Shown piece after piece: positions 9,025 to 16,093 of a stretch of DNA of 64,000 nt. Numbering within the stretch: the first letter of the stretch is position 1; each line of letters begins with the position of its first letter. The DNA is from Escherichia phage ECOH1, in the sequence record ON540300.1, one strand, 5' to 3'. The position numbers and the translations under genes are program-made. Under the pieces are notes generated by a model. That model saw only the letters and a program-made list of their open reading frames with translations. It had not been told where the DNA came from and did no database searches.

Positions 9025-10440
9025 ATGAGCGAATTATTTAAACATGCGCACCTTCATGCAGGTCGAACTGAAAATGGTGCTGTAAACCATACTTCATCAA
9101 TGTCTGCTCTTGTGGACTTTTACAAAGCTGCTGGTTCCAGCCGTAGCAATGTAGAAATCTTACCAGACCTGTTCTACAAAGCTTTGCGTGAGGATGTTGA
9201 TGTTGCAGTTCGTATTTTACTGCATATGCGAGATGTACGAGAAGGTATGGGTGAGCGTAAAGCTTTCCGAACTGTTTTACTTCAAGCGATTGAAGATAAA
9301 GTTTTAGAGCCTACACAGGTTCTTCGCATTATGGATAAGATTGCAGAACTTGGTCGTTTTGATGACTTCAAAATCTTCGTAGGTACTCGTTTTGAGACAG
9401 ATGCCTTCAAACATTTAGAAGCAGCATTACTAGACCCTGCAACAGCAGGTTTAGCGGCTAAGTGGTTACCACGAGTAAAACCACGCCACAAACAGTTTGT
9501 AAAACGTTTCTGTAAGTTTGCAAACTTAAGTGAGAAGGAGTATCGCACACTGTTATCTGCACTGTCTGATACGGTTGAGCAAAAAATCTCTGCTAATGAG
9601 TTTGGTAAGATTGACTACAGCAAGATTCCTTCACTCGCTGCTGCACGTTACCAAAAGCTCTTTAACCGTAAAGATGGGGAACGTTACAAAGCTTACATCG
9701 AGTCCCTCTCAAAAGGTGAGGTTAAGATTAACGCTGGTGCTGTTTACCCATACGATGTGATTAAATCTATCAAGTATGGTAATGCAGATGTTGCTAATGA
9801 GCAGTGGAAAGCACTACCAAACTGGATGGCAGAAGGTGAGAACATCTTGTGTATGACTGATGTTTCAAGCTCAATGTCTTGGGTGAATCTTGGTTCAATC
9901 ACTGCCCTTGATATTGGTGTATCACTTGCTTTGTATGTAGCAGAACGCAACACTGGTTGCTTTAAGAATGAGTTAATGGTTTACTCAACAAACCCTCACT
10001 TCATCGAACTGAGTGGTGATTTACGAAACCGTCATCGTCAGGTAATGCGTCATGTTGAATATGGTTCAACTAACTTACAAGCAGCTTTTGACCGTATTCT
10101 TGAGGTAGGTAAGCGAAACAACTTGACTCAGAAAGATATGCCAAGTAAGCTTATTATCTTCTCTGATATGGAGTTCACTCAGGTTGATGGAGCTAACGGT
10201 CGTACAAACTTTGAAGCAATTCAGAGTAAGTACAAAAAAGCTGGATACGAAATGCCACAACTAGTATTCTGGTACTTAGCAAACCGTAATGGTACTTGCG
10301 AAGTATCTGTTAAGGATAATGGTGTAGCGATGGTATCAGGGTTCTCTCCAGCCACTTTAAAAGCTCTGCTTGGTGGTGAGAAGTTTGACCCAATCAGCGT
10401 AATGCTCAAAGCAGTAATGATTGACCGTTACATCTGGTAA
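9025..10440 (+). CDS. vWA-domain protein with MIDAS motif; architecture resembles Ro60/TROVE (Rsr-like) RNA-binding proteins
   Basis: DxSxS motif DVSSSMS near residue 280, later hydrophobic IIFSDMEF strand, helical N-terminal 270 aa; homology unverified. Confidence 0.7.
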   Translation: MSELFKHAHLHAGRTENGAVNHTSSMSALVDFYKAAGSSRSNVEILPDLFYKALREDVDVAVRILLHMRDVREGMGERKAFRTVLLQAIEDKVLEPTQVLRIMDKIAELGRFDDFKIFVGTRFETDAFKHLEAALLDPATAGLAAKWLPRVKPRHKQFVKRFCKFANLSEKEYRTLLSALSDTVEQKISANEFGKIDYSKIPSLAAARYQKLFNRKDGERYKAYIESLSKGEVKINAGAVYPYDVIKSIKYGNADVANEQWKALPNWMAEGENILCMTDVSSSMSWVNLGSITALDIGVSLALYVAERNTGCFKNELMVYSTNPHFIELSGDLRNRHRQVMRHVEYGSTNLQAAFDRILEVGKRNNLTQKDMPSKLIIFSDMEFTQVDGANGRTNFEAIQSKYKKAGYEMPQLVFWYLANRNGTCEVSVKDNGVAMVSGFSPATLKALLGGEKFDPISVMLKAVMIDRYIW

Positions 10441-10458
10441 AAAGTTTTAAAAAGGGTA

Positions 10459-10488
10459 TTGACAATGTGTTTGATACCCTTTAATATG
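10459..10488 (+). promoter_or_regulatory. sigma70-like promoter inside palindrome AAAGGGTAT / ATACCCTTT
   Basis: TTGACA 10459-10464, TAATAT about 18 nt downstream; flanking 9-bp inverted repeat. Confidence 0.45.
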
Positions 10489-10549
10489 TTCTACATAGAA
10501 ACGAAATGAGAGCTTTTCTAAGATACTGAAAAATATTTTAAAAAAGTTC

Positions 10550-10578
10550 TTGACAACCACTAAAAAATAATGTTAAAG
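10550..10578 (+). promoter_or_regulatory. candidate promoter for tRNA array
   Basis: TTGACA at 10550-10555; weak -10; 30 bp upstream of first tRNA. Confidence 0.35.
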
Positions 10579-10605
10579 TGGTTACATAGAGTTTGAAAAG
10601 TTTAT

Positions 10606-10682
10606 CTCTGTTTAGCTCAGCTTGGTAGAGCGTTCCGTTTGGGGCGGTAAGGCCGGAGGTTCAAGTCCTCCAACAGAGACCA
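10606..10682 (+). tRNA. tRNA-Pro (anticodon TGG)
   Basis: Cloverleaf by eye: acceptor 7/7, D-stem gctc/gagc, anticodon loop ttTGGgg, T-loop TTCAAGT, CCA encoded. Confidence 0.8.
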
Positions 10683-10689
10683 AATTAAT

Positions 10690-10767
10690 GTTCCAGTAGA
10701 CAAAATGGTAAAGTCACCACTCTTTCAAAGTGGATATTTGAGGGTTCAAATCCCTTCTGGAACGCCA
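10690..10767 (+). tRNA. tRNA-Glu (anticodon TTC)
   Basis: Acceptor 7/7, perfect anticodon stem, loop ctTTCaa, T-loop TTCAAAT, CCA encoded. Confidence 0.8.
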
Positions 10768-10858
10768 GTTTTGACAGAAGACCAATTGCAGCAAACTTAA
10801 TCTTATTCATCTGACACGAAATCGGACAAAGAAGAGATTTGGTCTGGTCATTAAGAAT
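10768..10858 (+). ncRNA. structured spacer element A (5' ACAGAAGACCA ... 3' TGGTCTGGTCATT)
   Basis: Terminal stem AGACCA/TGGTCT; same family as elements at 10936 and 11441. Confidence 0.4.
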
Positions 10859-10935
10859 TGCGGGTATAGAGAAAGGGCGTCTCACATGTCTCATTAGCAT
10901 GGTATCGGCAGGTTCGACTCCTGCACCCGCCTCCA
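10859..10935 (+). tRNA. tRNA with CAT anticodon (Met or Ile-lysidine type)
   Basis: D-stem gaga/tctc, anticodon stem catgt/gcatg, loop ctCATta, T-loop TTCGACT; acceptor has one mismatch. Confidence 0.6.
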
Positions 10936-11018
10936 AATTTACAGAAGACCGTTTACAGCAATATTTATTAAATTTTTAGCGGAAAAATTGAAAGATACGG
11001 TCTGGTAATACTAAACAT
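10936..11018 (+). ncRNA. structured spacer element B (5' ACAGAAGACCGTTTACAGCAA ... 3' ACGGTCTGGTAAT)
   Basis: Terminal stem AGACCGT/ACGGTCT enclosing internal hairpin AATTTTT-agcgg-AAAAATT. Confidence 0.4.
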
Positions 11019-11095
11019 GGTTAGGAAGCACATAAGGTATGTGCGGTCGCCTGTTAAGCGAATGGCACAGGGTTCGAATCCCTGACTAACCGCCA
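11019..11095 (+). tRNA. tRNA-Asn (anticodon GTT)
   Basis: Acceptor ggttagg/actaacc, anticodon loop ctGTTaa, T-loop TTCGAAT, CCA encoded. Confidence 0.75.
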
Positions 11096-11104
11096 AATTT
11101 AAAT

Positions 11105-11192
11105 GTGTCGTTATCCCGTAGATGGTAGCGGTGGGGACTGTAAATCCCTTGTCATTGAGACTCGGTAGGTTCGACTCCTACACGGCACACCA
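11105..11192 (+). tRNA. tRNA-Tyr (anticodon GTA), long variable arm
   Basis: Acceptor gtgtcgt/acggcac, anticodon loop ctGTAaa, 15-nt variable arm, T-loop TTCGACT, CCA. Confidence 0.7.
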
Positions 11193-11198
11193 AATAAA

Positions 11199-11276
11199 GG
11201 TTATGTAGTTTAATCTGGTTAAAATACTCCCCTGTCACGGGAGATGATGAGGGTTCAAATCCCTTCGTAACCGCCA
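11199..11276 (+). tRNA. tRNA-Asp (anticodon GTC)
   Basis: Acceptor ggttatg/cgtaacc, anticodon stem ctccc/gggag, loop ctGTCac, T-loop TTCAAAT, CCA. Confidence 0.75.
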
Positions 11277-11440
11277 AATTATAATAAGTATTTCAAAATG
11301 ATGTTTGAGAGGGCTATTTAGCCCCTCCCTTAAAGAGTTCTTACGAGTATTCTTTAAAGGAGCAGAAGGCCAAATTCAGCAAGTTACTTAAAATTTCAAG
11401 CCAATTTAATTTTGAAAAATTTAAAACTTGGTCTGGCTCA

Positions 11441-11597
11441 ACAATTTTACAGAAGACCGTTTACAGCAAAACTTAAACAATCTATTTCTCCGGTAAAGAA
11501 AAGGCGAAGGTTCGATTCCTTCACTCGGCAGATGTCGAGTTGGTGTAATGGTAGCACTTAAGATGATAAACAACGGTCTGGTAATTATCTTTGTAGG
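11441..11597 (+). ncRNA. structured element C: permuted tRNA-like module (T-arm, closed acceptor-like helix, D-arm; no anticodon arm) inside a spacer-repeat stem
   Basis: T-arm GAAGG-TTCGATT-CCTTC 11517-11533; acceptor 3' strand ACTCGGC 11534-11540, loop agat, 5' strand GTCGAGT 11545-11551; D-arm GTGT-aatggta-GCAC 11554-11568; enclosing stem AGACCGTT 11466-11473 / AACGGTCT 11583-11590. Confidence 0.55.
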
Positions 11598-11730
11598 TGA
11601 GCTATTAAGCTTACCTGTGAGTATGCGACCACAAAGGGTGAAAGGGTAAATTCTAGATTTAAACCCAACAAGGCACATCGCTACAGACCTTAAGCAAGTC
11701 TGGGTAGCTTATCTACAAAGATAATTTAAT

Positions 11731-11806
11731 GGAAGTGTAGCAGAATGGTGATGCGGCAGACTTTTAATCTGACAGGCGATGGGTTCGAATCCCTCCACTT
11801 CTACCA
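11731..11806 (+). tRNA. tRNA-Lys (anticodon TTT)
   Basis: Acceptor ggaagtg/cacttct, anticodon loop ctTTTaa, T-loop TTCGAAT, CCA; T-stem has 2 mismatches. Confidence 0.65.
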
Positions 11807-11810
11807 ATAT

Positions 11811-11887
11811 GGTTCAGTCGCAGATAAGGTAATGCAGGGGTCTCATAAGCCCTATGAATGTGGGTTCGATTCCCATCTGAACCTCCA
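11811..11887 (+). tRNA. tRNA-Met (anticodon CAT), second copy
   Basis: Acceptor ggttcag/ctgaacc 7/7, anticodon loop ctCATaa, T-loop TTCGATT, CCA. Confidence 0.7.
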
Positions 11888-11888
11888 A

Positions 11889-11964
11889 GCTGGTATAGTT
11901 AAGAAGGTTATAACACTCCCCTGATAAGGGAACATCGGTGGTTCGATTCCACCTACCAGTACCA
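11889..11964 (+). tRNA. tRNA-Ile (anticodon GAT)
   Basis: D-stem gtta/taac, anticodon loop ctGATaa, T-stem ggtgg/ccacc, CCA. Confidence 0.75.
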
Positions 11965-11979
11965 ATTTCAATAAAGTTG

Positions 11980-12008
11980 TTGACATTGAGATGTGACTAC
12001 TTTATAGT
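11980..12008 (+). promoter_or_regulatory. sigma70-like promoter inside tRNA array
   Basis: TTGACA 11980-11985, 17-nt spacer, TATAGT 12003-12008. Confidence 0.6.
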
Positions 12009-12331
12009 AACTGAAAATGATTCAGCATATGTATAATTCAAACACCAATACATGAGCATTAGACGTAATGCAATGTGGGGAAATTTGTTGTACATATTCT
12101 GAATAGTTTTCGTTGCGTAGCGTCTATTTTGCAAATTTAAAATAAATGCAAACGACAATGTTTTTCTGGCAGTAGCTTGATAGGCTAAACACCAGTGAGG
12201 TCTTCCAATCCCTCATCAAAGAATTTGGCGTACTAGCCCACGGTATGATTAATAAGGTGGGCAACATTTTAAAGGGTATCCCTTATTGGGCTTGGCTTAA
12301 ATGCAATGAGTACCCTTTAAAATGTTAATTA

Positions 12332-12413
12332 CGGGGCGTATCTCAGCGGTCTTCTAAACCGCCGTTAACCGAGTAAGTGGAGTATGCGGGTTCGAGTCCT
12401 GCCGCCTCGACCA
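12332..12413 (+). tRNA. non-canonical tRNA-like gene, anticodon arm consistent with TCT (Arg)
   Basis: Perfect arm gcggt-ctTCTaa-accgc, T-arm and acceptor cggggcg/cgcctcg with CCA; D-arm region only about 7 nt and about 23-nt variable region. Confidence 0.45.
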
Positions 12414-12556
12414 ATTTAGTTAGCAGATTGCTTAGACGACCTTATCGGGTCTCCGTGTAAGGAGGTGGTCTGTATCTCATGTTTTCCAGAACATGTAAAT
12501 AATCTGAGAAGGGGCTTTACAGTGTTGTGAAAATACGGTAAGCTTCGAATTACAAT

Positions 12557-12639
12557 ATGGGACGATGTTAAGACTCTAAGGCATGAGCAACGGCTTCCAA
12601 CACCGTTTCAAAGGGGTTCAACTCCTCCGTCCCATGCCA
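12557..12639 (+). tRNA. tRNA-Trp-like (anticodon CCA) with extended D region
   Basis: Acceptor atgggac/gtcccat 7/7, anticodon loop ttCCAac, T-loop TTCAACT, CCA; D region about 7 nt too long. Confidence 0.5.
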
Positions 12640-12652
12640 AAGTCTTATTAGG

Positions 12653-12740
12653 GGTAGGTAGCGGCTAATGGTAGCCAAACTGTCTTGAAAACAGTTGCCA
12701 CTGTAGAGATACGGTGAGGGTTCGACTCCTTTACTTACCG
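12653..12740 (+). tRNA. tRNA-Ser (anticodon TGA), long variable arm
   Basis: 3-bp D-stem, anticodon loop ctTGAaa, about 20-nt variable arm, T-loop TTCGACT; CCA not encoded. Confidence 0.7.
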
Positions 12741-12997
12741 CCTAATAAGATTTACACCGTCCATGCTTGCTCGCATTTTCGGTTTATCCATCGTGTATTG
12801 TCGTACACACTGATAAAGCACCTAGTAGGTGTCACGGAGAAGAGATAATATCAAGCTCTCCAAAGGTTCTAGTCACCGGATTAAACAAGACTATGCAAAG
12901 ACCTATTTAGGTCTTTTTAGAGGGCTTCTAAGGTTATTACAGCTTGTTGTGGAACCTTGTTGCTTAGGTTCTTAGAAGTTCTCTAAAAAGATTTAAT

Positions 12998-13075
12998 GGG
13001 AGATTGACGGTAATTGGTAAACCTACCATCCTTAGAAGTTGGTGTTTGAGGGTTCGAATCCCTTGTCTCCTACCA
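12998..13075 (+). tRNA. tRNA with anticodon TAG (Leu box), short variable loop
   Basis: Acceptor gggagat/gtctcct, Leu-like D-loop taattggtaaa, anticodon loop ctTAGaa, 5-nt variable loop, CCA. Confidence 0.55.
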
Positions 13076-13082
13076 AATTAAT

Positions 13083-13158
13083 GCAGGTGTAGCAAAATGG
13101 TTATGCGGCTGACTCTTAATCAGTAAGACGATGGGTTCAATTCCCTCCACCTGTACCA
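13083..13158 (+). tRNA. tRNA-Lys (anticodon CTT)
   Basis: Paralog of Lys-TTT gene; anticodon loop ctCTTaa, T-loop TTCAATT, CCA. Confidence 0.7.
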
Positions 13159-13164
13159 AACATT

Positions 13165-13240
13165 GGGGATGTAGTTTACATGGTTAAAACATAAGTTTTG
13201 CAAACTTAAGTACAGGGTTCAATTCCCTGCTTCTCCACCA
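13165..13240 (+). tRNA. tRNA-Ala (anticodon TGC)
   Basis: D-stem gttt/aaac, perfect anticodon stem taagt/actta, loop ttTGCaa, CCA. Confidence 0.75.
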
Positions 13241-13246
13241 ATTAGT

Positions 13247-13321
13247 GCATCCATAGTTTAAACGGGAAAATTACAGTCTTCCAAACTGAGGTTGAGGGTT
13301 CGATTCCCTCTGGATGCTCCA
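13247..13321 (+). tRNA. tRNA-Gly (anticodon TCC)
   Basis: Acceptor gcatcca/tggatgc 7/7, anticodon loop ctTCCaa, T-loop TTCGATT, CCA. Confidence 0.75.
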
Positions 13322-13328
13322 AATTAAT

Positions 13329-13404
13329 GCTCCTATCGTATAATTGGCTATTACGGTTGCCTTGTAAGCAACTTATCAGGGTTCGAATCCTTGTGGGAGC
13401 ACCA
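13329..13404 (+). tRNA. tRNA-Thr (anticodon TGT)
   Basis: Anticodon stem gttgc/gcaac perfect, loop ctTGTaa, T-loop TTCGAAT, CCA. Confidence 0.8.
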
Positions 13405-13499
13405 ATTCAGAGGTCAAGTGAAAGACCGCTGGTGTCAACTGAAGACCGTAACAAATTCCACGGAGTTGAGTTAGCGGCACAACTTCAGACCTCTTCCAT
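13405..13499 (+). ncRNA. structured spacer element D, degenerate relative of element C
   Basis: Contains CTGAAGACCGTAACAA (5' motif variant) and GGAGTTGAGTTAGCGGCAC resembling the acceptor-5'/D-arm part of element C; outer stem AGAGGTC/GACCTCT. Confidence 0.35.
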
Positions 13500-13574
13500 A
13501 CTCGCTTAGTTTATATGGTAAAACATCACCCTTACAAGATGAAGAAAAAGGTTCAAGTCCTTTAGTGAGTACCA
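13500..13574 (+). tRNA. tRNA-Val (anticodon TAC)
   Basis: D-stem gttt/aaac, anticodon loop ctTACaa, T-stem aaagg/ccttt, CCA. Confidence 0.7.
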
Positions 13575-13575
13575 T

Positions 13576-13653
13576 GTTCCAGTATCCCAATTGGCAGAGG
13601 ATGCAAGCTCAAACCTTGTACTAGTGACGGTTCGAATCCGTCTTGGAACACCA
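13576..13653 (+). tRNA. tRNA with anticodon CAA (Leu box), short variable loop
   Basis: D-arm tcc-caattggcaga-gga (Leu-like), anticodon stem gcaag/cttgt, loop ctCAAac, 6-nt variable loop, CCA. Confidence 0.6.
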
Positions 13654-13658
13654 ATTTT

Positions 13659-13734
13659 GCAGGATTAGTTCAAATGGATAGAGCAACAGTCTACGAAGCT
13701 GTTAATAGGGGTTCGAATCCCTTATCCTGCGCCA
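13659..13734 (+). tRNA. tRNA-Arg (anticodon ACG)
   Basis: Acceptor gcaggat/atcctgc 7/7, anticodon loop ctACGaa, T-loop TTCGAAT, CCA. Confidence 0.75.
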
Positions 13735-13753
13735 AGTTAAAGAGGCTATTTAG

Positions 13754-14311
13754 ATGAGATATTTGAAGTATGCTTCATGGATTTTCTTAGCTTTGTTAGA
13801 ACCATTTGCAGCAATCTTAGCAGTTATCTTAGCACCTTTTGTAGTTCCATTCTACAGTGAGAAGAAAGGACATCTACCTTTCGGGTTCAGATGGATGGAA
13901 ACTTATGACAACCCAATTGATGGCGATGAAGGTCATGTCAAAAGATGGGCTAAGATTAGAAAGATTGGTAAGCTTGGTATCTATATGCAGAGAGTCGGTT
14001 GGCTCTGGAGAAACAAAGCTTATAACTTCTCTTACCATGTGTTAGGAAGAGATGTAAAAGATGTTACTAAGTGGAAAGGTAATATCAATGTAAGTTCTAA
14101 CCCTGAAGATAATCAGACAGGTTATCTCCTAATGTGGAACAGTAATGCTTGGGGGTTATTCGCTTTTGTACCATCAATTAAAATCTTTGGTAAACAATTC
14201 TACTGGAGAATTTATGTTGGATGGAAACTTAAAAGTGTTGTCCCAGAAGAAAGAGCATTCTCAAGGGAAAGAGTTATGTTGGCATTCTTTATCCATCCAC
14301 TAAGAAAATAA
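13754..14311 (+). CDS. membrane protein encoded inside the tRNA array (185 aa)
   Basis: ORF track; N-terminal hydrophobic segment WIFLALLEPFAAILAVILAPFVVPF; preceded by AGAGGCTATTTAG motif. Confidence 0.6.
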   Translation: MRYLKYASWIFLALLEPFAAILAVILAPFVVPFYSEKKGHLPFGFRWMETYDNPIDGDEGHVKRWAKIRKIGKLGIYMQRVGWLWRNKAYNFSYHVLGRDVKDVTKWKGNINVSSNPEDNQTGYLLMWNSNAWGLFAFVPSIKIFGKQFYWRIYVGWKLKSVVPEERAFSRERVMLAFFIHPLRK

Positions 14312-14319
14312 AGATTTAA

Positions 14320-14395
14320 AGGGGATTAGTTTACAAGGTTAAAACCTCGGTCTTTGAAATCGAAGAAGTTGGTTCAATTCCAACATCCCCCGCCA
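14320..14395 (+). tRNA. tRNA-Gln (anticodon TTG)
   Basis: D-stem gttt/aaac, anticodon loop ctTTGaa, T-stem gttgg/ccaac, CCA. Confidence 0.75.
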
Positions 14396-14397
14396 AT

Positions 14398-14476
14398 GCT
14401 CCATTACTCCAATTGGCAGAGAGGCCAGACTTAAAATCTGTGTTATGTATCGGTTCGAATCCGATATGGAGTACCA
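14398..14476 (+). tRNA. tRNA with anticodon TAA (Leu box), short variable loop
   Basis: D-arm ctc-caattggcaga-gag (Leu-like), anticodon loop ctTAAaa, 7-nt variable loop, T-stem atcgg/ccgat, CCA. Confidence 0.6.
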
Positions 14477-14481
14477 AATTT

Positions 14482-14557
14482 AGCGGTATAGCATAACTGG
14501 CAATGCAGCAGTCTCTGAAGCTGTCTTATTAAGGTTCAAATCCTTATGCCGCTGCCA
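14482..14557 (+). tRNA. tRNA-Gln (anticodon CTG)
   Basis: D-stem gcat/atgc, anticodon loop ctCTGaa, T-stem taagg/cctta, CCA. Confidence 0.75.
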
Positions 14558-14588
14558 CTTCTAAGGATTCTTACGAGAGTCCTTAAAT

Positions 14589-14664
14589 GTGGCCTTATCA
14601 TAAATGGTAATGACCCATGCTGTGAACATGGTCTATACGGGTTCAAATCCCGTAGGTCACCCCA
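14589..14664 (+). tRNA. tRNA-His (anticodon GTG)
   Basis: Perfect anticodon stem ccatg/catgg, loop ctGTGaa, discriminator C, CCA; no encoded G at -1. Confidence 0.75.
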
Positions 14665-14669
14665 ATTTA

Positions 14670-14744
14670 TAGTCCAAGTAGCTTATATGGTTAAAGCGCG
14701 TGTCTGAAAAACATGAGAAGAGGGTTCAAATCCCACTGGGCTAC
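14670..14744 (+). tRNA. tRNA-Phe (anticodon GAA)
   Basis: Acceptor tagtcca/tgggcta, anticodon stem cgtgt/acatg, loop ctGAAaa, T-loop TTCAAAT; CCA not fully encoded. Confidence 0.65.
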
Positions 14745-15013
14745 CAATTTCAAAGGTGCTTAATGAAAGAGATGACAGAACAAGGTAAGGAGATTTTTAA
14801 TCTCTTAAAAACCGGTAGAGGGTTTTCTAATCCCTTATTACTGGTGCAGCAGTTCTCGGTGGAACCGTAGCTGCCTCTACATCACTTGTAAGCTCTATTA
14901 GCTCTGTAACAGACCCTACAATAAAGGATAAACTTGTTGCTGCTGGACTTACAACAGTTCTGCTTAACAGCTTTACAACGAGTCTGACAAGCACTACATC
15001 AACCACTAAGACA

Positions 15014-15496
15014 TTGGCAGATTACGGTCAAAAGTCCATTGATGAGTTTTCATCACGTATGCAGGTAGCAAAAGGATATTCCAATGTTATGGGTGCAGCA
15101 GGAGAGCAAGTCGGTTGCACACCATTTAGTGGTATTATGGGTGTTGCTACAGAGTACGGTCAAAAAGCTATTGACACAATTAACAGTACACTAGATGGTG
15201 TTAATGATGTATTAAGTGACTTACAAGATGCTATTGATAAAGGTCTTGATACTGTTTCTGATTTAGCTAATCAAGCTGTTAGTAAGATTAATGAAGGTAT
15301 CTCGAAGATTACAGCTTATGCAGATGAAGTTGTGCAGATGATTGAAGAAGAAGCTGCCCTTATTGCAGAGTACCTTAAAACGAATATCAATGGGTTCTTA
15401 GCAGGTATCTTACCAGACTGGTTTGATGATGCTTGTAAAACTGGTGTAATTGACACTATTGCAACACCAGAAATGAAGAACGCATTACAGAAATAA
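15014..15496 (+). CDS. hypothetical protein (at least 160 aa); N-terminus uncertain
   Basis: ORF track start is TTG; the same frame stays open and protein-like back to 14831 with no ATG or GTG. Confidence 0.5.
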   Translation: MADYGQKSIDEFSSRMQVAKGYSNVMGAAGEQVGCTPFSGIMGVATEYGQKAIDTINSTLDGVNDVLSDLQDAIDKGLDTVSDLANQAVSKINEGISKITAYADEVVQMIEEEAALIAEYLKTNINGFLAGILPDWFDDACKTGVIDTIATPEMKNALQK

Positions 15497-15497
15497 T

Positions 15498-15590
15498 GGA
15501 AGATTAACCCTAAAAGGTAAGGGAGCAGTTTGCTAAACTGCCAGTAGCTGAGAAATCGGTGTACCAGTTCAAGTCTGGTATCTTCCTCCA
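15498..15590 (+). tRNA. tRNA-Ser (anticodon GCT), long variable arm
   Basis: Acceptor ggaagat/atcttcc 7/7, perfect anticodon stem gcagt/actgc, loop ttGCTaa, about 21-nt variable arm, T-loop TTCAAGT, CCA. Confidence 0.75.
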
Positions 15591-15594
15591 ATTT

Positions 15595-15670
15595 GAATCC
15601 GTGACAGAAATGGCTATGTACCTGTCTGCAAAACAGGTTTATAAGGGTTCGAGTCCCTTCGGATTCTCCA
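15595..15670 (+). tRNA. tRNA-Cys (anticodon GCA)
   Basis: Acceptor gaatccg/cggattc 7/7, perfect anticodon stem cctgt/acagg, loop ctGCAaa, T-loop TTCGAGT, CCA. Confidence 0.8.
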
Positions 15671-15705
15671 AGTTATTTTACTCTCTCTCAATTAAAATAA
15701 TAATA

Positions 15706-15768
15706 ATGCCCTGCTATAAGTATTCTTCCTTTCGCTACCGAAGAGTATTTTTAGACAGGGCTTTTTTA
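15706..15768 (+). terminator. long-hairpin Rho-independent terminator closing the tRNA array
   Basis: GCCCTG ... CAGGGC imperfect long hairpin followed by TTTTTT. Confidence 0.65.
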
Positions 15769-15830
15769 CAGAGTTATACTTTATAAGAAGACTTATACAG
15801 TATGTCTCTGACGTACATTGTGGTTTCTCC

Positions 15831-15857
15831 TTGACGGTCTCTGTACCGTCTTTTTTA
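15831..15857 (+). terminator. second tandem terminator
   Basis: GACGG-tctctgta-CCGTC then TTTTTT. Confidence 0.6.
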
Positions 15858-15892
15858 AGGAGAAACATGGTTAACTATTTGGAGAAAACATA

Positions 15893-16093
15893 ATGAGCGA
15901 GACCGTTTATAAAGAACTTTATGAAGCTAATAAGAAGCTAGAATTTATGCAGAATACTATCATGGCAATTGCAGACAGATTATCTGTAGCAACAGGTATT
16001 GATATTAAAGAAGCGTCTATGGATGCACTTCTTGACGCTGTTGATGCAAAGTTCGAAGTTAAGAAAGAAGAGACTGCTACAGACTCTGAATAA
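15893..16093 (+). CDS. small acidic protein (66 aa)
   Basis: ORF track; immediately upstream of terminase large subunit; no diagnostic motif. Confidence 0.45.
   Translation: MSETVYKELYEANKKLEFMQNTIMAIADRLSVATGIDIKEASMDALLDAVDAKFEVKKEETATDSE

Follow-up and report, generated by a model that had tools for sequence, protein, structure and literature searches.

Does each structurally odd member of the tRNA array of Escherichia phage ECOH1 (ON540300.1) work as a tRNA for the amino acid that its anticodon predicts? A first-pass annotation of the window, by which we mean the whole 64,000-nt stretch of DNA analysed, had listed 27 tRNA genes for all 20 amino acids, several of them non-canonical. The window represents a Felixounavirus (95–98% identity to KEP1, JN01 and Felix O1), and the 27-tRNA cluster of Felix O1-type phages is a long-known feature of this known genus: 405 phage records match the locus, 232 of them covering at least 80% of the query, and the same tRNA series is annotated in Felix O1, EcoM2, Moogle and SUSP1. 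ARAGORN identified 25 tRNA genes at 10606–15670, all on the plus strand, as are all features described below, and their coordinates and anticodons coincide with those of the first-pass annotation. The two additional genes that had been folded by hand, with anticodons TCT and CCA, are both real and complete the count of 27; by anticodon, the 27 genes do cover all 20 amino acids. Rfam RF00005 yielded 24 tRNAs at its gathering score, the TCT gene included, and a scan for T-loop motifs located 28 T arms, corresponding to the 27 genes and one tRNA-like module at 11505. Automated folding with ARAGORN and Rfam did not reduce the array to canonical structures. Four oddities stand, namely a re-wired tRNA-Arg, a cryptic tRNA-Trp, tRNA-Leu with short variable loops and tRNA-His without G-1, none of which we found described in the searchable literature. 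Judging from their sequences, the odd members are most likely working tRNAs, and less likely pseudogenes.

The array opens with canonical tRNA-Pro(TGG) (10606–10682; Rfam 57.7 bits) and tRNA-Glu(TTC) (10690–10767; 60.6 bits), both also found by ARAGORN. ARAGORN and Rfam agree on tRNA-Asn(GTT) (11019–11095), Tyr(GTA) (11105–11192; 88 nt, long variable arm kept), Asp(GTC) (11199–11276), Lys(TTT) (11731–11806), Met(CAT) (11811–11887), Ile(GAT) (11889–11964), Ser(TGA) (12653–12742; class II, 90 nt, CCA incompletely encoded), the canonical Lys(CTT), Ala(TGC), Gly(TCC) and Thr(TGT) (13083–13404), Val(TAC) (13500–13574), Arg(ACG) (13659–13734), Gln(TTG) (14320–14395), Gln(CTG) (14482–14557), Ser(GCT) (15498–15590; class II, 93 nt) and Cys(GCA) (15595–15670). 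tRNA-Phe(GAA) (14671–14746) was found by ARAGORN, as was an atypical tRNA with anticodon CAT (10859–10935) that lies below the Rfam gathering score; the latter has a U1·C72 mismatch, U73 and U37 (loop CTCATTA), and its minimum free energy structure is a clean cloverleaf. Matches to the sigma-70 consensus predict two promoters at 10459–10579 (TTGACA-17-TAATAT and TTGACA-18-TAAAGT), immediately 5′ of the first tRNA, and, upstream of the Arg and Trp slots, a site at 11980–12008 that resembles a promoter more closely than any other in the region (TTGACA-17-TATAGT, 11/12). The array further contains a 185-aa ORF (13754–14311; Pfam DUF7338, annotated as 'holin' in EcoM2) and four non-tRNA hairpin units (10775–10847, 10942–11005, 11363–11436 and 11450–11581), all of which combine the 5′ box CAGAAGRCC-N5-CAGCAA with the 3′ box GGTCTGG. 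Within the fourth unit lies a permuted tRNA-like module composed of a T arm, a capped acceptor and a D arm.

The three tRNA-Leu genes had been described as combining Leu-like D arms with variable loops of only 5–7 nt, which ARAGORN and RNAalifold confirm. ARAGORN places tRNA-Leu(TAG) at 12998–13075 (78 nt, 5-nt variable loop, A73, G1·U72), tRNA-Leu(CAA) at 13576–13653 (78 nt, 6-nt loop, A73) and tRNA-Leu(TAA) at 14398–14476 (79 nt, 7-nt loop, A73, G1·U72), the last two being recovered by Rfam as well. RNAalifold gives a class-I cloverleaf in which 18 of 20 pairs covary, and the anticodon stem of Leu(TAG) has been replaced wholesale in relatives. In addition to A73, the genes retain a Leu-type D loop (A14, A15, G18G19, A20a) and U48. 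The E. coli LeuRS requires A73 and D/T-loop tertiary pairs, the long arm being dispensable (PMC9976931), and all three tRNAs carry the E. coli leucine identity set. Phages of Erwinia, Aeromonas and Streptomyces, and uncultured phages, have short tRNA-Leu genes of this kind too. For each of the three Leu tRNAs of phage Sf14, Leu is the top-ranked isotype model in tRNAscan-SE (PMC12482277). We found no comment on the short loop in either the Felix O1 or the Sf14 paper, and the word 'variable' is absent from the latter (PMC12482277).

The tRNA-Arg(TCT) gene (12332–12413) was missed by ARAGORN and scores marginally in Rfam (12332–12410; 31.7 bits, threshold 29), where the D arm is deleted from the alignment, with 4 nt standing in for 15, and the variable region has an insertion of 20 nt; model R1 gives it 100.9 bits. 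Its structure was derived from family alignment A2 and pair counts. The acceptor strand 12332–12338, paired with 12403–12409, is followed by UAU and then by a helix of CUC (12342–12344) with GAG (12371–12373) that encloses the anticodon arm (12346–12362) and the linker CGUUAACC after it. A D-loop-like segment, UAAGUGGAGUAU (12374–12385), leads into the T arm (12386–12402), A73 and CCA. Across 41 distinct variants of the family, 98.4% of cells are paired and 17 of 20 pairs show double changes, a level reached by none of 500 shuffles. The enclosing helix (positions 11–13:40–42), which precedes the D-loop-like GUAAyUGGAGUAU, is paired in 100% of variants with exchanges UA/AU/GC and CG/GC/UA. The first-pass annotation was right about an abnormal D arm and a long variable region, but the D arm is not merely absent: its helix has been re-connected so as to enclose the anticodon arm. 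An alternative thermodynamic helix, 38–40:47–49, is 86% paired with zero double changes. Folding of the single sequence does not predict the re-wired helix and gives an energy indistinguishable from that of shuffles (z = 0.04). At 3 bp, the enclosing helix is short. The anticodon loop CUUCUAA and the UGGA that supplies the analogues of G18, G19 and A20 are invariant among the 41 variants, position 73 is always a purine (G in 25, A in 16), and CCA is encoded in 28. The Arg identity elements are retained, the E. coli determinants being A20, C35, U36 and A/G73 (PMC9976931). A second re-wired gene carries another Arg anticodon, ACG.

Full-length copies of the re-wired gene (82–100% identity) are present in 262 phage records, from Ounavirinae, T5-like Klebsiella and Serratia phages and Asteriusvirus jumbo phages to Justusliebigvirus, Vequintavirinae and a Streptomyces phage, as well as in 58 IMG/VR loci. 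In a genome set covering 185,579 species of bacteria and archaea, only three MAG contigs match. The gene is thus widespread in many unrelated phage families and hardly ever annotated. Most of its loci are same-strand tRNA arrays, where it exchanges with the canonical Arg(TCT) gene precisely at the gene boundaries: 15 Ounavirinae loci have the re-wired and 17 the canonical gene, none has both, and beyond this set the two occur together in only 1 of 61 loci. AGA is the commonest Arg codon in genomes with the re-wired allele, and no other AGA reader was found in them; the Felix O1 paper expected an AGA tRNA, yet did not find it (PMC3185647). Codon-usage compensation, suggested for the array from the outset, is how the Felix O1 and Sf14 clusters have been interpreted in print (PMC3185647, PMC12482277) and is plausible here, as AGA accounts for 43% of the Arg codons of the window. 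Seven of ten tested proteins encoded directly downstream of the re-wired gene are HNH proteins. This association is partial and statistical: among Ounavirinae, HNH genes follow 3/15 re-wired versus 0/17 canonical loci, and none adjoins the Arg(TCT) gene in the window. A precedent for homing is SegB in the T4 tRNA region (PMC2330249). The Trp and Leu(UAG) slots, with two alleles each, are polymorphic like that of Arg.

The tRNA-Trp(CCA)-like gene (12557–12639) was missed by both ARAGORN and Rfam, and its structure follows from covariation across 10 variants, with 99.5% of cells paired and double changes in 8 of 20 pairs. This conserved, cloverleaf-like RNA has an 8-bp acceptor, an invariant 11-nt linker (AUGUUAAGA..), a 3-bp D stem (CUC/GAG) with loop UAAGGCAU, a C31·A39 mismatch in the anticodon stem, a 5-nt variable loop, a weak 4-bp T stem, G73 and CCA. 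The extended D region reported earlier therefore exists, 11 nt separating the acceptor from the D stem. The 83-nt element is found in 235 records and is confined to Ounavirinae, ranging from Felixounavirus to Pectobacterium phages; none of the 40 records listed annotates it as a tRNA. Two Felixounavirus loci (L012 and L017) have a different, 71-nt Trp(CCA) gene in its place. The tRNA-His(GTG) gene (14589–14664; ARAGORN) indeed lacks an encoded G-1, having T at –1 together with C73, and T occupies –1 in 28 of 29 relatives. As the E. coli HisRS depends strongly on G-1 (PMC9976931), this tRNA may be poorly charged. The His gene of T5, annotated as an effective suppressor, likewise has T at –1 and no G-1.

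The earlier choice between identity changes and pseudo-tRNAs does not agree with genes that keep identity elements, covary in all helices and stand in slots where other genomes have canonical alleles. Decay into non-functional relics would explain why programs miss or barely score the odd genes, why RefSeq flags the His and Tyr genes of Felix O1 as pseudo and why the TCT gene folds with unremarkable energy. We nevertheless consider it highly improbable, because covariation extends to every helix, the sequences of loops, identity positions and linkers do not vary between phage families with no other DNA in common, the commonest Arg codon would be left without its reader, and the Trp element has been retained throughout its range. 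Slightly less credible still is a switch of amino-acid identity, for instance class-I tRNA-Leu charged by another synthetase, leading to recoding. The variable arm lost in the Leu genes is a class-II hallmark, and for 14 of 26 tRNAs of the Moogle-like Sf14 the best tRNAscan-SE isotype model disagrees with the anticodon (PMC12482277). However, the three Leu, Arg(TCT) and Arg(ACG) are 'consistent' in that same table (PMC12482277), the Leu, Arg and Trp genes each hold their own identity sets, and coding sequences give no sign of recoding.

It is also conceivable, if rather unlikely, that the re-wired Arg and odd Trp are mimics (decoys for modification enzymes or tRNA-targeting nucleases of the host, processing punctuation, or, like the tRNA-like Y RNAs, partners of the RNA-binding protein encoded nearby) or cleavage-immune alleles hitch-hiking with HNH homing endonucleases. 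The T5 tRNA region contains stable tRNA-like RNAs of unknown function, so that a tRNA shape need not mean a tRNA in such regions; in the window, the YrlA-like permuted module and the repeated hairpins adjoin a gene annotated 'RNA-binding protein', and outside the window the re-wired gene frequently has an HNH gene as its direct neighbour. Phages are known to use tRNAs in counter-defence: tRNA-Tyr acts against Septu (PMC13096335), and the Sf14 paper cites anticodon-loop escape variants (PMC12482277). A decoy, however, needs no invariant A20 analogue, purine 73, encoded CCA or freely covarying 7-bp acceptor, nor need its gene sit exactly in the slot of the canonical one and exclude it; two Arg anticodons, moreover, share the one architecture. 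Mimic and decoder roles are mutually compatible.

On balance, we think it probable that this Felix O1-like (Ounavirinae) cluster is driven by sigma-70-type promoters of its own and carries working, anticodon-faithful non-canonical tRNAs that host enzymes charge with the predicted amino acid. Their architecture would have drifted solely at sites that the cognate E. coli synthetase ignores. The Leu genes have lost the long variable arm and kept what LeuRS needs, and Trp retains CCA, G73 and A1-U72, with an 8/4 split of the acceptor/T helix and a linker ahead of its small D arm. In Arg(UCU), the strand after U8-A9-U10 pairs with the strand 3′ of the anticodon arm, and the AAyUGGA segment, with G18G19 and the ArgRS determinant A20, leads straight into the T arm. 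By geometric reasoning, this may be a normal tRNA with block 10–21 relocated between positions 48 and 49; since the three new junctions join neighbours in the L-fold, the normal three-dimensional shape could be kept. The polymorphic slots and the sharing of the re-wired Arg gene among unrelated phage families are likely due to gene conversion driven by free-standing HNH homing endonuclease genes within tRNA clusters, to whose cleavage the re-arranged Arg gene may be immune.

In animal mitochondria, the D-arm-less tRNA-Ser(AGY) is the classic tRNA without a normal D hairpin; in the phage Arg gene the D arm is re-connected, not lost. Absence of the long variable arm from tRNA-Leu had so far been stated solely for the class-I tRNA-Leu of animal mitochondria (PMC9976931). 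Unlike animal mitochondrial tRNAs, the phage genes keep a full T arm and a G18G19-type elbow sequence, and would use bacterial synthetases, EF-Tu and ribosomes. Permuted tRNA genes of Cyanidioschyzon and YrlA (order V-T-capped acceptor-D; PMC4201824) likewise alter segment order and retain the fold, but there a single permutation point rearranges the entire molecule and moves its ends, whereas the re-wired Arg has normal 5′ and 3′ ends and its D 5′ strand and D loop have swapped places with the block of D 3′ strand, anticodon arm and variable region. The literature searched did not describe an internal transposition of this kind, and a review of non-canonical tRNAs (PMC7609411) does not mention phage. 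T4 SegB and the T5 heg genes resemble the present case in HNH genes adjoining tRNA genes, mosaic alleles and whole-gene replacement at conserved flanks (PMC2330249); they differ in that a cleavage site, homing and immunity are presumed for the re-wired allele. The annotated 71-nt tRNA-Trp of T5 is also missed by ARAGORN, and its sequence is different from the 83-nt element.

Clusters of virulent coliphages (22 tRNAs reported in Felix O1, 26 in Sf14/Moogle, 24–25 in T5, 8 in T4) occupy the same locus as the array, between the 'RNA-binding protein' and terminase genes. Their gene order is likewise the same, their CCA ends are encoded, and small ORFs and HNH genes are scattered among the tRNAs. 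The Felix O1 list differs in its 'expected but missing' AGA reader and that of Sf14 in its 19 amino acids, with Trp absent. Published tRNA counts for such clusters omit the Trp and re-wired Arg genes; with these included, the array would give an AT-rich phage a full decoding set during infection, with readers of AGA, UUA, CUA, AAG and UGG among them.

The tRNA array (10606-15670, + strand) is in itself known and ordinary. A search with its 5.5-kb region hit 405 phage records; in 232 the match covers 80% or more of the query, with 94-98% identity to Felixounavirus genomes of Escherichia and Salmonella phages such as KEP1, JN01, EcoM2 and Felix O1. Since this tRNA series, flanked by genes for an 'RNA-binding protein' and the large terminase, recurs in EcoM2, Felix O1, Moogle and SUSP1, the cluster as such was already known. 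Felix O1 was published with 22 tRNAs (PMC3185647) and the Moogle-like phage Sf14 with 26 tRNAs for 19 amino acids, Trp being the missing one (PMC12482277). ARAGORN detected 25 tRNAs between 10606 and 15670, all on the + strand. With Rfam model RF00005, for which the curated gathering threshold of 29 bits served as the membership cut-off, 24 genes passed with 31.7-65.2 bits, the lowest score being that of the TCT gene (12332-12410); the CAT tRNA at 10859 and the Tyr tRNA at 11105 were reported by ARAGORN but fell below the RF00005 gathering score. A scan for the T-loop motif returned 28 T arms, corresponding to 27 genes and a tRNA-like module at 11505. Taken together, the three approaches locate in the sequence all 27 genes that the first-pass annotation had listed, with their coordinates and anticodons, and the four oddities it had pointed out (short variable loops in the Leu genes and unusual TCT, CCA and His genes) can all be seen there as well.

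The CCA end is encoded by nearly every gene of the array. A 7-bp acceptor stem, a 5-bp T stem with the GTTCRANYC loop, a discriminator and a CCA end were found in 26 genes, including the re-wired tRNA-Arg described below, and a canonical D hairpin (10-13:22-25 plus loop, between position 9 and the anticodon arm) in 25, the exceptions being the TCT and CCA genes. In the window, the Tyr tRNA and the two Ser tRNAs still have long variable arms. In the first CAT tRNA (10859-10935, +), which scored under the Rfam gathering threshold, U1 and C72 are mismatched, positions 73 and 37 are both U (loop CTCATTA), and the three G-C pairs of the initiator are lacking. Rfam run in E-value mode over 10300-15900 retrieved no further family and no significant Y RNA or tmRNA, and low-stringency ARAGORN (-ps80) added only a spurious 'tRNA-Pyl(cta)' across the Trp region and antisense artefacts, which were discarded.

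The TCT gene (12332-12413) had been described as lacking a normal D-arm. The D hairpin is indeed absent: just 7 nt separate the acceptor from the anticodon stem, and Rfam can align the gene only with the D arm deleted (4 nt against 15 model positions) and a 20-nt insertion 3′ of the anticodon arm. However, the gene has instead a covarying helix that spans the anticodon arm. We aligned 41 distinct variants of the gene. The acceptor stem (7 bp), anticodon stem (5 bp) and T stem (5 bp) all covary freely, and the blocks U8-A9-U10-C11, CUUCUAA, CGUUAA and GUAAyUGGAGUAUG are invariant. Columns 11-13 pair with columns 40-42 in 41 of 41 variants, forming 3 bp around the anticodon arm with exchanges among U-A, A-U and G-C and among C-G, G-C and U-A. 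Overall, 98.4% of cells are paired and 17 of 20 pairs show double changes; none of 500 shuffled alignments matched this, and slid controls collapsed. In the single-sequence minimum free energy (MFE) fold of the TCT gene the re-wired helix does not appear, and z-scores are weak. The alternative hairpin proposed by that fold (38-40:47-49) was rejected, as in the alignment it has no double changes, only 86% of its cells paired and 17 unpaired cells. A covariance model built from the alignment scores the TCT gene of the window at 100.9 bits vs at most 34 bits for ordinary tRNAs.

These data suggest how the gene is related to the usual tRNA. In the normal order of segments (1-9, 10-21, 22-48 and 49-76), the 5′ strand of the D stem together with the D loop appears to have been shifted behind the anticodon arm. 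The resulting order would be 1-10; a helix strand, A, the anticodon arm and an 8-nt linker; the other helix strand, the D-loop-like AAyUGGAG and UAU; and finally the T arm and acceptor. By strand polarity, CUC (11-13) would take the spatial place of 23-25 and continue into the anticodon stem, while GAG (40-42) would take that of 10-12 and continue into the D-loop analogue. Three new junctions would arise, from 9 to 22, from 44-48 to 10 and from 21 to 49. Because the two sides of each junction are neighbours in the core of the L-shape, the usual fold seems sterically plausible.

The determinants of arginine identity in E. coli are A20 following G18G19, C35, U36 (or G36) and A or G at 73 (PMC9976931). 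Correspondingly, all 41 variants have UGGA, CUUCUAA and a purine at position 73; the discriminator is G in 25 and A in 16, and 28 of the 41 encode the CCA end. The A following GG presumably sits in the position-20 pocket. When the covariance model was run on 69 other loci it recovered one Arg(ACG) example, and its scan of the window revealed no second re-wired gene. The ACG gene lies at 2689-2766 of L109, an uncultured phage contig that also bears a re-wired Arg(TCT), and has the same topology with a 3-nt instead of an 8-nt linker after the anticodon arm. This example ties the re-wired architecture to arginine. Of 581 Arg codons in 40 long ORFs of the window, 248 (43%) are AGA, more than for any other Arg codon, and genomes that carry the re-wired allele lack any further AGA reader. 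The identity set, the ACG gene, the AGA usage and the lack of another AGA reader all favour, and at the level of sequence argue for, a working tRNA-Arg(UCU). Among 61 further loci, a canonical Arg(TCT) gene adjoins the re-wired one in a single case (locus L079, 1522-1692), with the two genes 13 nt apart; this pair may represent an intermediate or a recent acquisition.

In Ounavirinae the canonical and re-wired genes alternate at one position of the array: the 77-nt canonical tRNA-Arg(TCT) was found in 17 loci, the 82-nt re-wired gene in 15, and both together in none. The flanking sequences of the two alleles can be aligned as far as the gene boundaries on both sides, to the base, so the exchange of one Arg gene for the other is exact. 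Searches with the 82-nt gene identified full-length copies (82-90% identity) in T5-like Klebsiella and Serratia phages, in Asteriusvirus and other jumbo phages, in Justusliebigvirus and Vequintavirinae, and in one Streptomyces phage. Among the matches listed, the copies are unannotated, covered by a CDS annotation (hypothetical protein or HNH endonuclease) or labelled 'tRNA-OTHER'. Pattern searches based on conserved segments yielded 58 loci in IMG/VR and only three MAG contigs among bacteria and archaea (185,579 species, one genome each). We found no description of this topology in the searchable literature, including searches with the conserved sequence strings, although papers in subscription journals were mostly beyond reach and such absence is not proof. 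The re-wired tRNA-Arg is a widespread, essentially unannotated topology.

At most loci the re-wired gene lies within a same-strand tRNA array. Of 10 tested proteins whose ORFs start 2-50 nt downstream of it, 7 are HNH endonucleases, and in Ounavirinae an HNH gene follows 3 of the 15 re-wired alleles vs 0 of the 17 canonical ones. Free-standing homing endonucleases, such as SegB of T4, are known to drive the inheritance of phage tRNA regions (PMC2330249; PMC13096335). Homing by the HNH enzymes could have produced the boundary-exact allele swap and the spread among phage families, with the re-arranged gene itself being immune to the nuclease. We give somewhat less than an even chance to the joint scenario, in which the re-wired tRNA-Arg is a functional, L-shaped tRNA of new topology, is charged by the ArgRS of the host, decodes AGA and has spread across unrelated phage families together with HNH genes, through escape of the gene or its RNA from a nuclease to which the canonical gene or tRNA is susceptible.

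The CCA gene (12557-12639) was reported by neither ARAGORN nor Rfam, with no RF00005 match even at E≤10; its sole Rfam score was 16.9 bits to tRNA-Sec. Copies of this 83-nt element were found in 235 phage records, each of the Ounavirinae type, and none of the 40 matches listed carries a tRNA annotation; a pattern search of IMG/VR returned only Ounavirinae copies and chance matches. Its structure was derived from 10 distinct variants ranging from Felixounavirus to Pectobacterium phage Arno18. The acceptor stem of 8 bp and the T stem of 4 bp add up to 12 bp, as in the usual 7 + 5. An extended D region had been pointed out, and the alignment reveals a D stem (3 bp, with an 8-nt loop containing GG) that is displaced by an invariant 11-nt linker (AUGUUAAGA..). 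The anticodon stem has 5 bp and a conserved C31.A39 (C.C in Arno18) beside the loop yUCCAAm, and the variable loop is 5 nt long. In this alignment 99.5% of cells are paired, double changes affect 8 of 20 pairs and occur in every helix, and none of 500 shuffles matched.

Tryptophan identity in E. coli rests on the anticodon CCA, G73 and A1-U72. In the element, anticodon CCA and G73 are invariant and pair 1-72 is A-U in six variants, G.U in three and G-C in one. Judged by sequence, the anticodon, G73 and A1-U72 as the first base pair agree with the tryptophan set described for bacteria (PMC9976931). Counting the Trp element, these phages are predicted to encode readers for 20 of 20 amino acids. 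Two other Felixounavirus loci (L012 and L017, ~11394-11464) have a different, 71-nt Trp(CCA) gene in place of the 83-nt element, and the annotated 71-nt tRNA-Trp of T5 (L039, 15178-15248) is also undetected by ARAGORN; non-canonical tRNA-Trp genes seem to be common in these phages. The odd Trp gene (12565-12587, AUGUUAAGA-CUC-UAAGGCAU) and the re-wired Arg gene (12363-12382, CGUUAACC-GAG-UAAGUGGAG) have in common a GUUAA motif with a helix strand and then a UAAG(U)GG loop 3′ of it, and 'tRNA-like RNA3' of T5 includes GAGUUAAGUAAAC. GUUAA/UAAG(U)GG may be a common tertiary module.

The three Leu genes, TAG (12998-13075), CAA (13576-13653) and TAA (14398-14476), have A73, a 3-bp D stem with a Leu-type loop, and variable loops of 5, 6 and 7 nt; none has the long variable arm (>10 nt, stem-loop) of bacterial class II tRNAs. 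RNAalifold applied to 24 short phage Leu sequences gave a class-I cloverleaf without a variable stem, in which 18 of 20 pairs covary. The E. coli Leu set comprises A73, the D-loop bases A14, A15, G18G19 and A20a, and U48, which forms the A15-U48 pair (PMC9976931). The phage genes retain A73, D loops of the form cAAUUGGcAGA or tAAUUGGUAAA and U as the final base of the variable loop. In Sf14 the Leu isotype model was the top-scoring one for all three Leu tRNAs (PMC12482277). E. coli LeuRS requires A73 and tertiary elements of the D and T loops (A15-U48, G18G19, A20a), whereas the variable arm is dispensable, and arm-less tRNA-Leu variants are still active (PMC9976931). Since LeuRS does not need the arm and the identity set is kept, arm loss appears to be tolerated precisely where the synthetase permits it. 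Leu genes of similarly short length (75-80 nt) are found in Erwinia Kolesnikvirus, in one Demerecviridae phage of Aeromonas, in one Streptomyces phage and on contigs of uncultured phages. In contrast, Leu(UAG) of T5 has kept a 13-nt variable region. One may speculate, by analogy with Septu, which cuts tRNA-Tyr (PMC13096335), that arm loss was an escape from defences that cut variable loops. Across the window and its relatives (L001-L031), the Leu(TAG) slot is occupied by either of two short alleles unrelated to each other, one beginning gggagat... and one gcacctat...; in the former, three different, fully compensated anticodon stems occur (CCATC/GTTGG with U.U, TCTCG/CGAGA and CCTCG/CGAGG). 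This pattern fits cassette-like exchange inside the array.

G-1 is the major determinant of histidine identity in E. coli (PMC9976931). The His gene (14589-14664) has C73 and the anticodon GUG, yet no genome-encoded G-1 lies opposite C73: the base found there is T in the window, as it is in 28 of 29 relatives, the exception having A. Reading G14589 as G-1 was rejected because the 3′ end would then no longer read C73-CCA. Elsewhere, position -1 is T in T5, G in Roscha1 and C in AhSzw-1, and the tRNA-His of T5 is annotated as an effective suppressor. By this comparison, the missing G-1, which may lower the efficiency of the tRNA, is common to the window and to a phage tRNA that apparently works.

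The possibility that the odd members are pseudo-tRNAs, raised in the first-pass annotation, is at variance with intact pairing maintained by compensatory changes (98.4% of cells paired and 17 of 20 pairs doubly changed in Arg, 99.5% and 8 of 20 in Trp, 18 of 20 covarying pairs in Leu). The odd members of the array are real and conserved, have structural support and, judging from this pattern, are most likely functional.

Several other conserved features accompany the array. Four hairpin units (10775-10847, 10942-11005, 11363-11436 and 11450-11581, all +) are interspersed with the tRNAs, each with a 5′ box CAGAAGRCC-N5-CAGCAA, which in its combined form is unique to these units in the 64-kb window, and a 3′ box GGTCTGG. 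Each may act as a stable RNA, a processing RNA or a site for protein binding. The fourth unit contains a permuted tRNA-like module (11490-11560, +), in which a T arm (GAAGG-TTCGATT-CCTTC) is followed by a 7-bp hairpin in the acceptor position (ACTCGGC-AGAT-GTCGAGT) and by a 3′ part made of TG and a D-arm-like GTGTAATGGTAGCAC. The capped 'acceptor' hairpin covaries, and in Moogle and Michonne it reads ACCCTTC-G-CCA-AACA-GAAGGGT, equivalent to an encoded discriminator plus CCA. YrlA Y RNAs have a T arm, a capped acceptor-like stem and a D arm within a long terminal stem (PMC4201824); further marks of this type are GNCGAAN0-1G close to the 5′ end and an adjacent Ro60 (TROVE) gene. Unit 11450-11581 resembles YrlA in layout, and its capped stem covaries; its sole GNCGAA match overlaps the T stem instead of lying at the 5′ end, and the module has no Rfam match. 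Directly 5′ of the array, a 471-aa protein (9025-10440, +) with Pfam domains DUF2828 and DUF7788 (PHROG 850, 'RNA-binding protein') carries a DxSxS (MIDAS-like) motif at 279-283. No sequence relative was found for it in the PDB with phmmer or a six-sequence profile, and AlphaFold without an alignment gave an unusable model (pLDDT 44). In an unrelated contig (L055), a DUF2828 protein follows a re-wired tRNA-Arg. Promoter-like sites lie at 10459, 10550 and 11980, the last being a strong one upstream of a conserved non-coding segment (12015-12330, +). Another such segment (12414-12556, +) separates the Arg and Trp genes and contains a further GACC...GGTCTG stem at ~12434-12475; neither segment holds an ORF or an Rfam family. 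The DUF7217 gene (14763-15496, +), which encodes 244 aa in EcoM2, has lost one C from a CCCC run near 14832 and is split into ORFs of 35 and 160 aa, through an error in sequencing or a genuine frameshift.

If these genes encode working tRNAs, cloverleaf connectivity would not be obligatory in bacterial translation, and an internal block of a tRNA would be transposable while the ArgRS determinants and the elbow stay in place. They would provide a natural test of which parts of the tRNA core are read by synthetases, RNase P, EF-Tu, modification enzymes and the ribosome, as well as a scaffold for engineered or orthogonal tRNAs. The long variable arm has been reviewed as present in tRNA-Leu everywhere but animal mitochondria (PMC9976931), a statement that would then call for a phage exception. 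tRNA inventories would be incomplete for hundreds of sequenced phages: Felix O1-like phages would read 20 rather than 19 amino acids and many phages would gain an unlisted AGA reader, which bears on analyses of codon adaptation and host range. The HNH genes, along with host defences that cut tRNAs, offer a testable evolutionary story. With the re-wired Arg, arm-less Leu and cryptic Trp genes considered together, phages would constitute a reservoir of divergent working tRNAs overlooked by standard finders.
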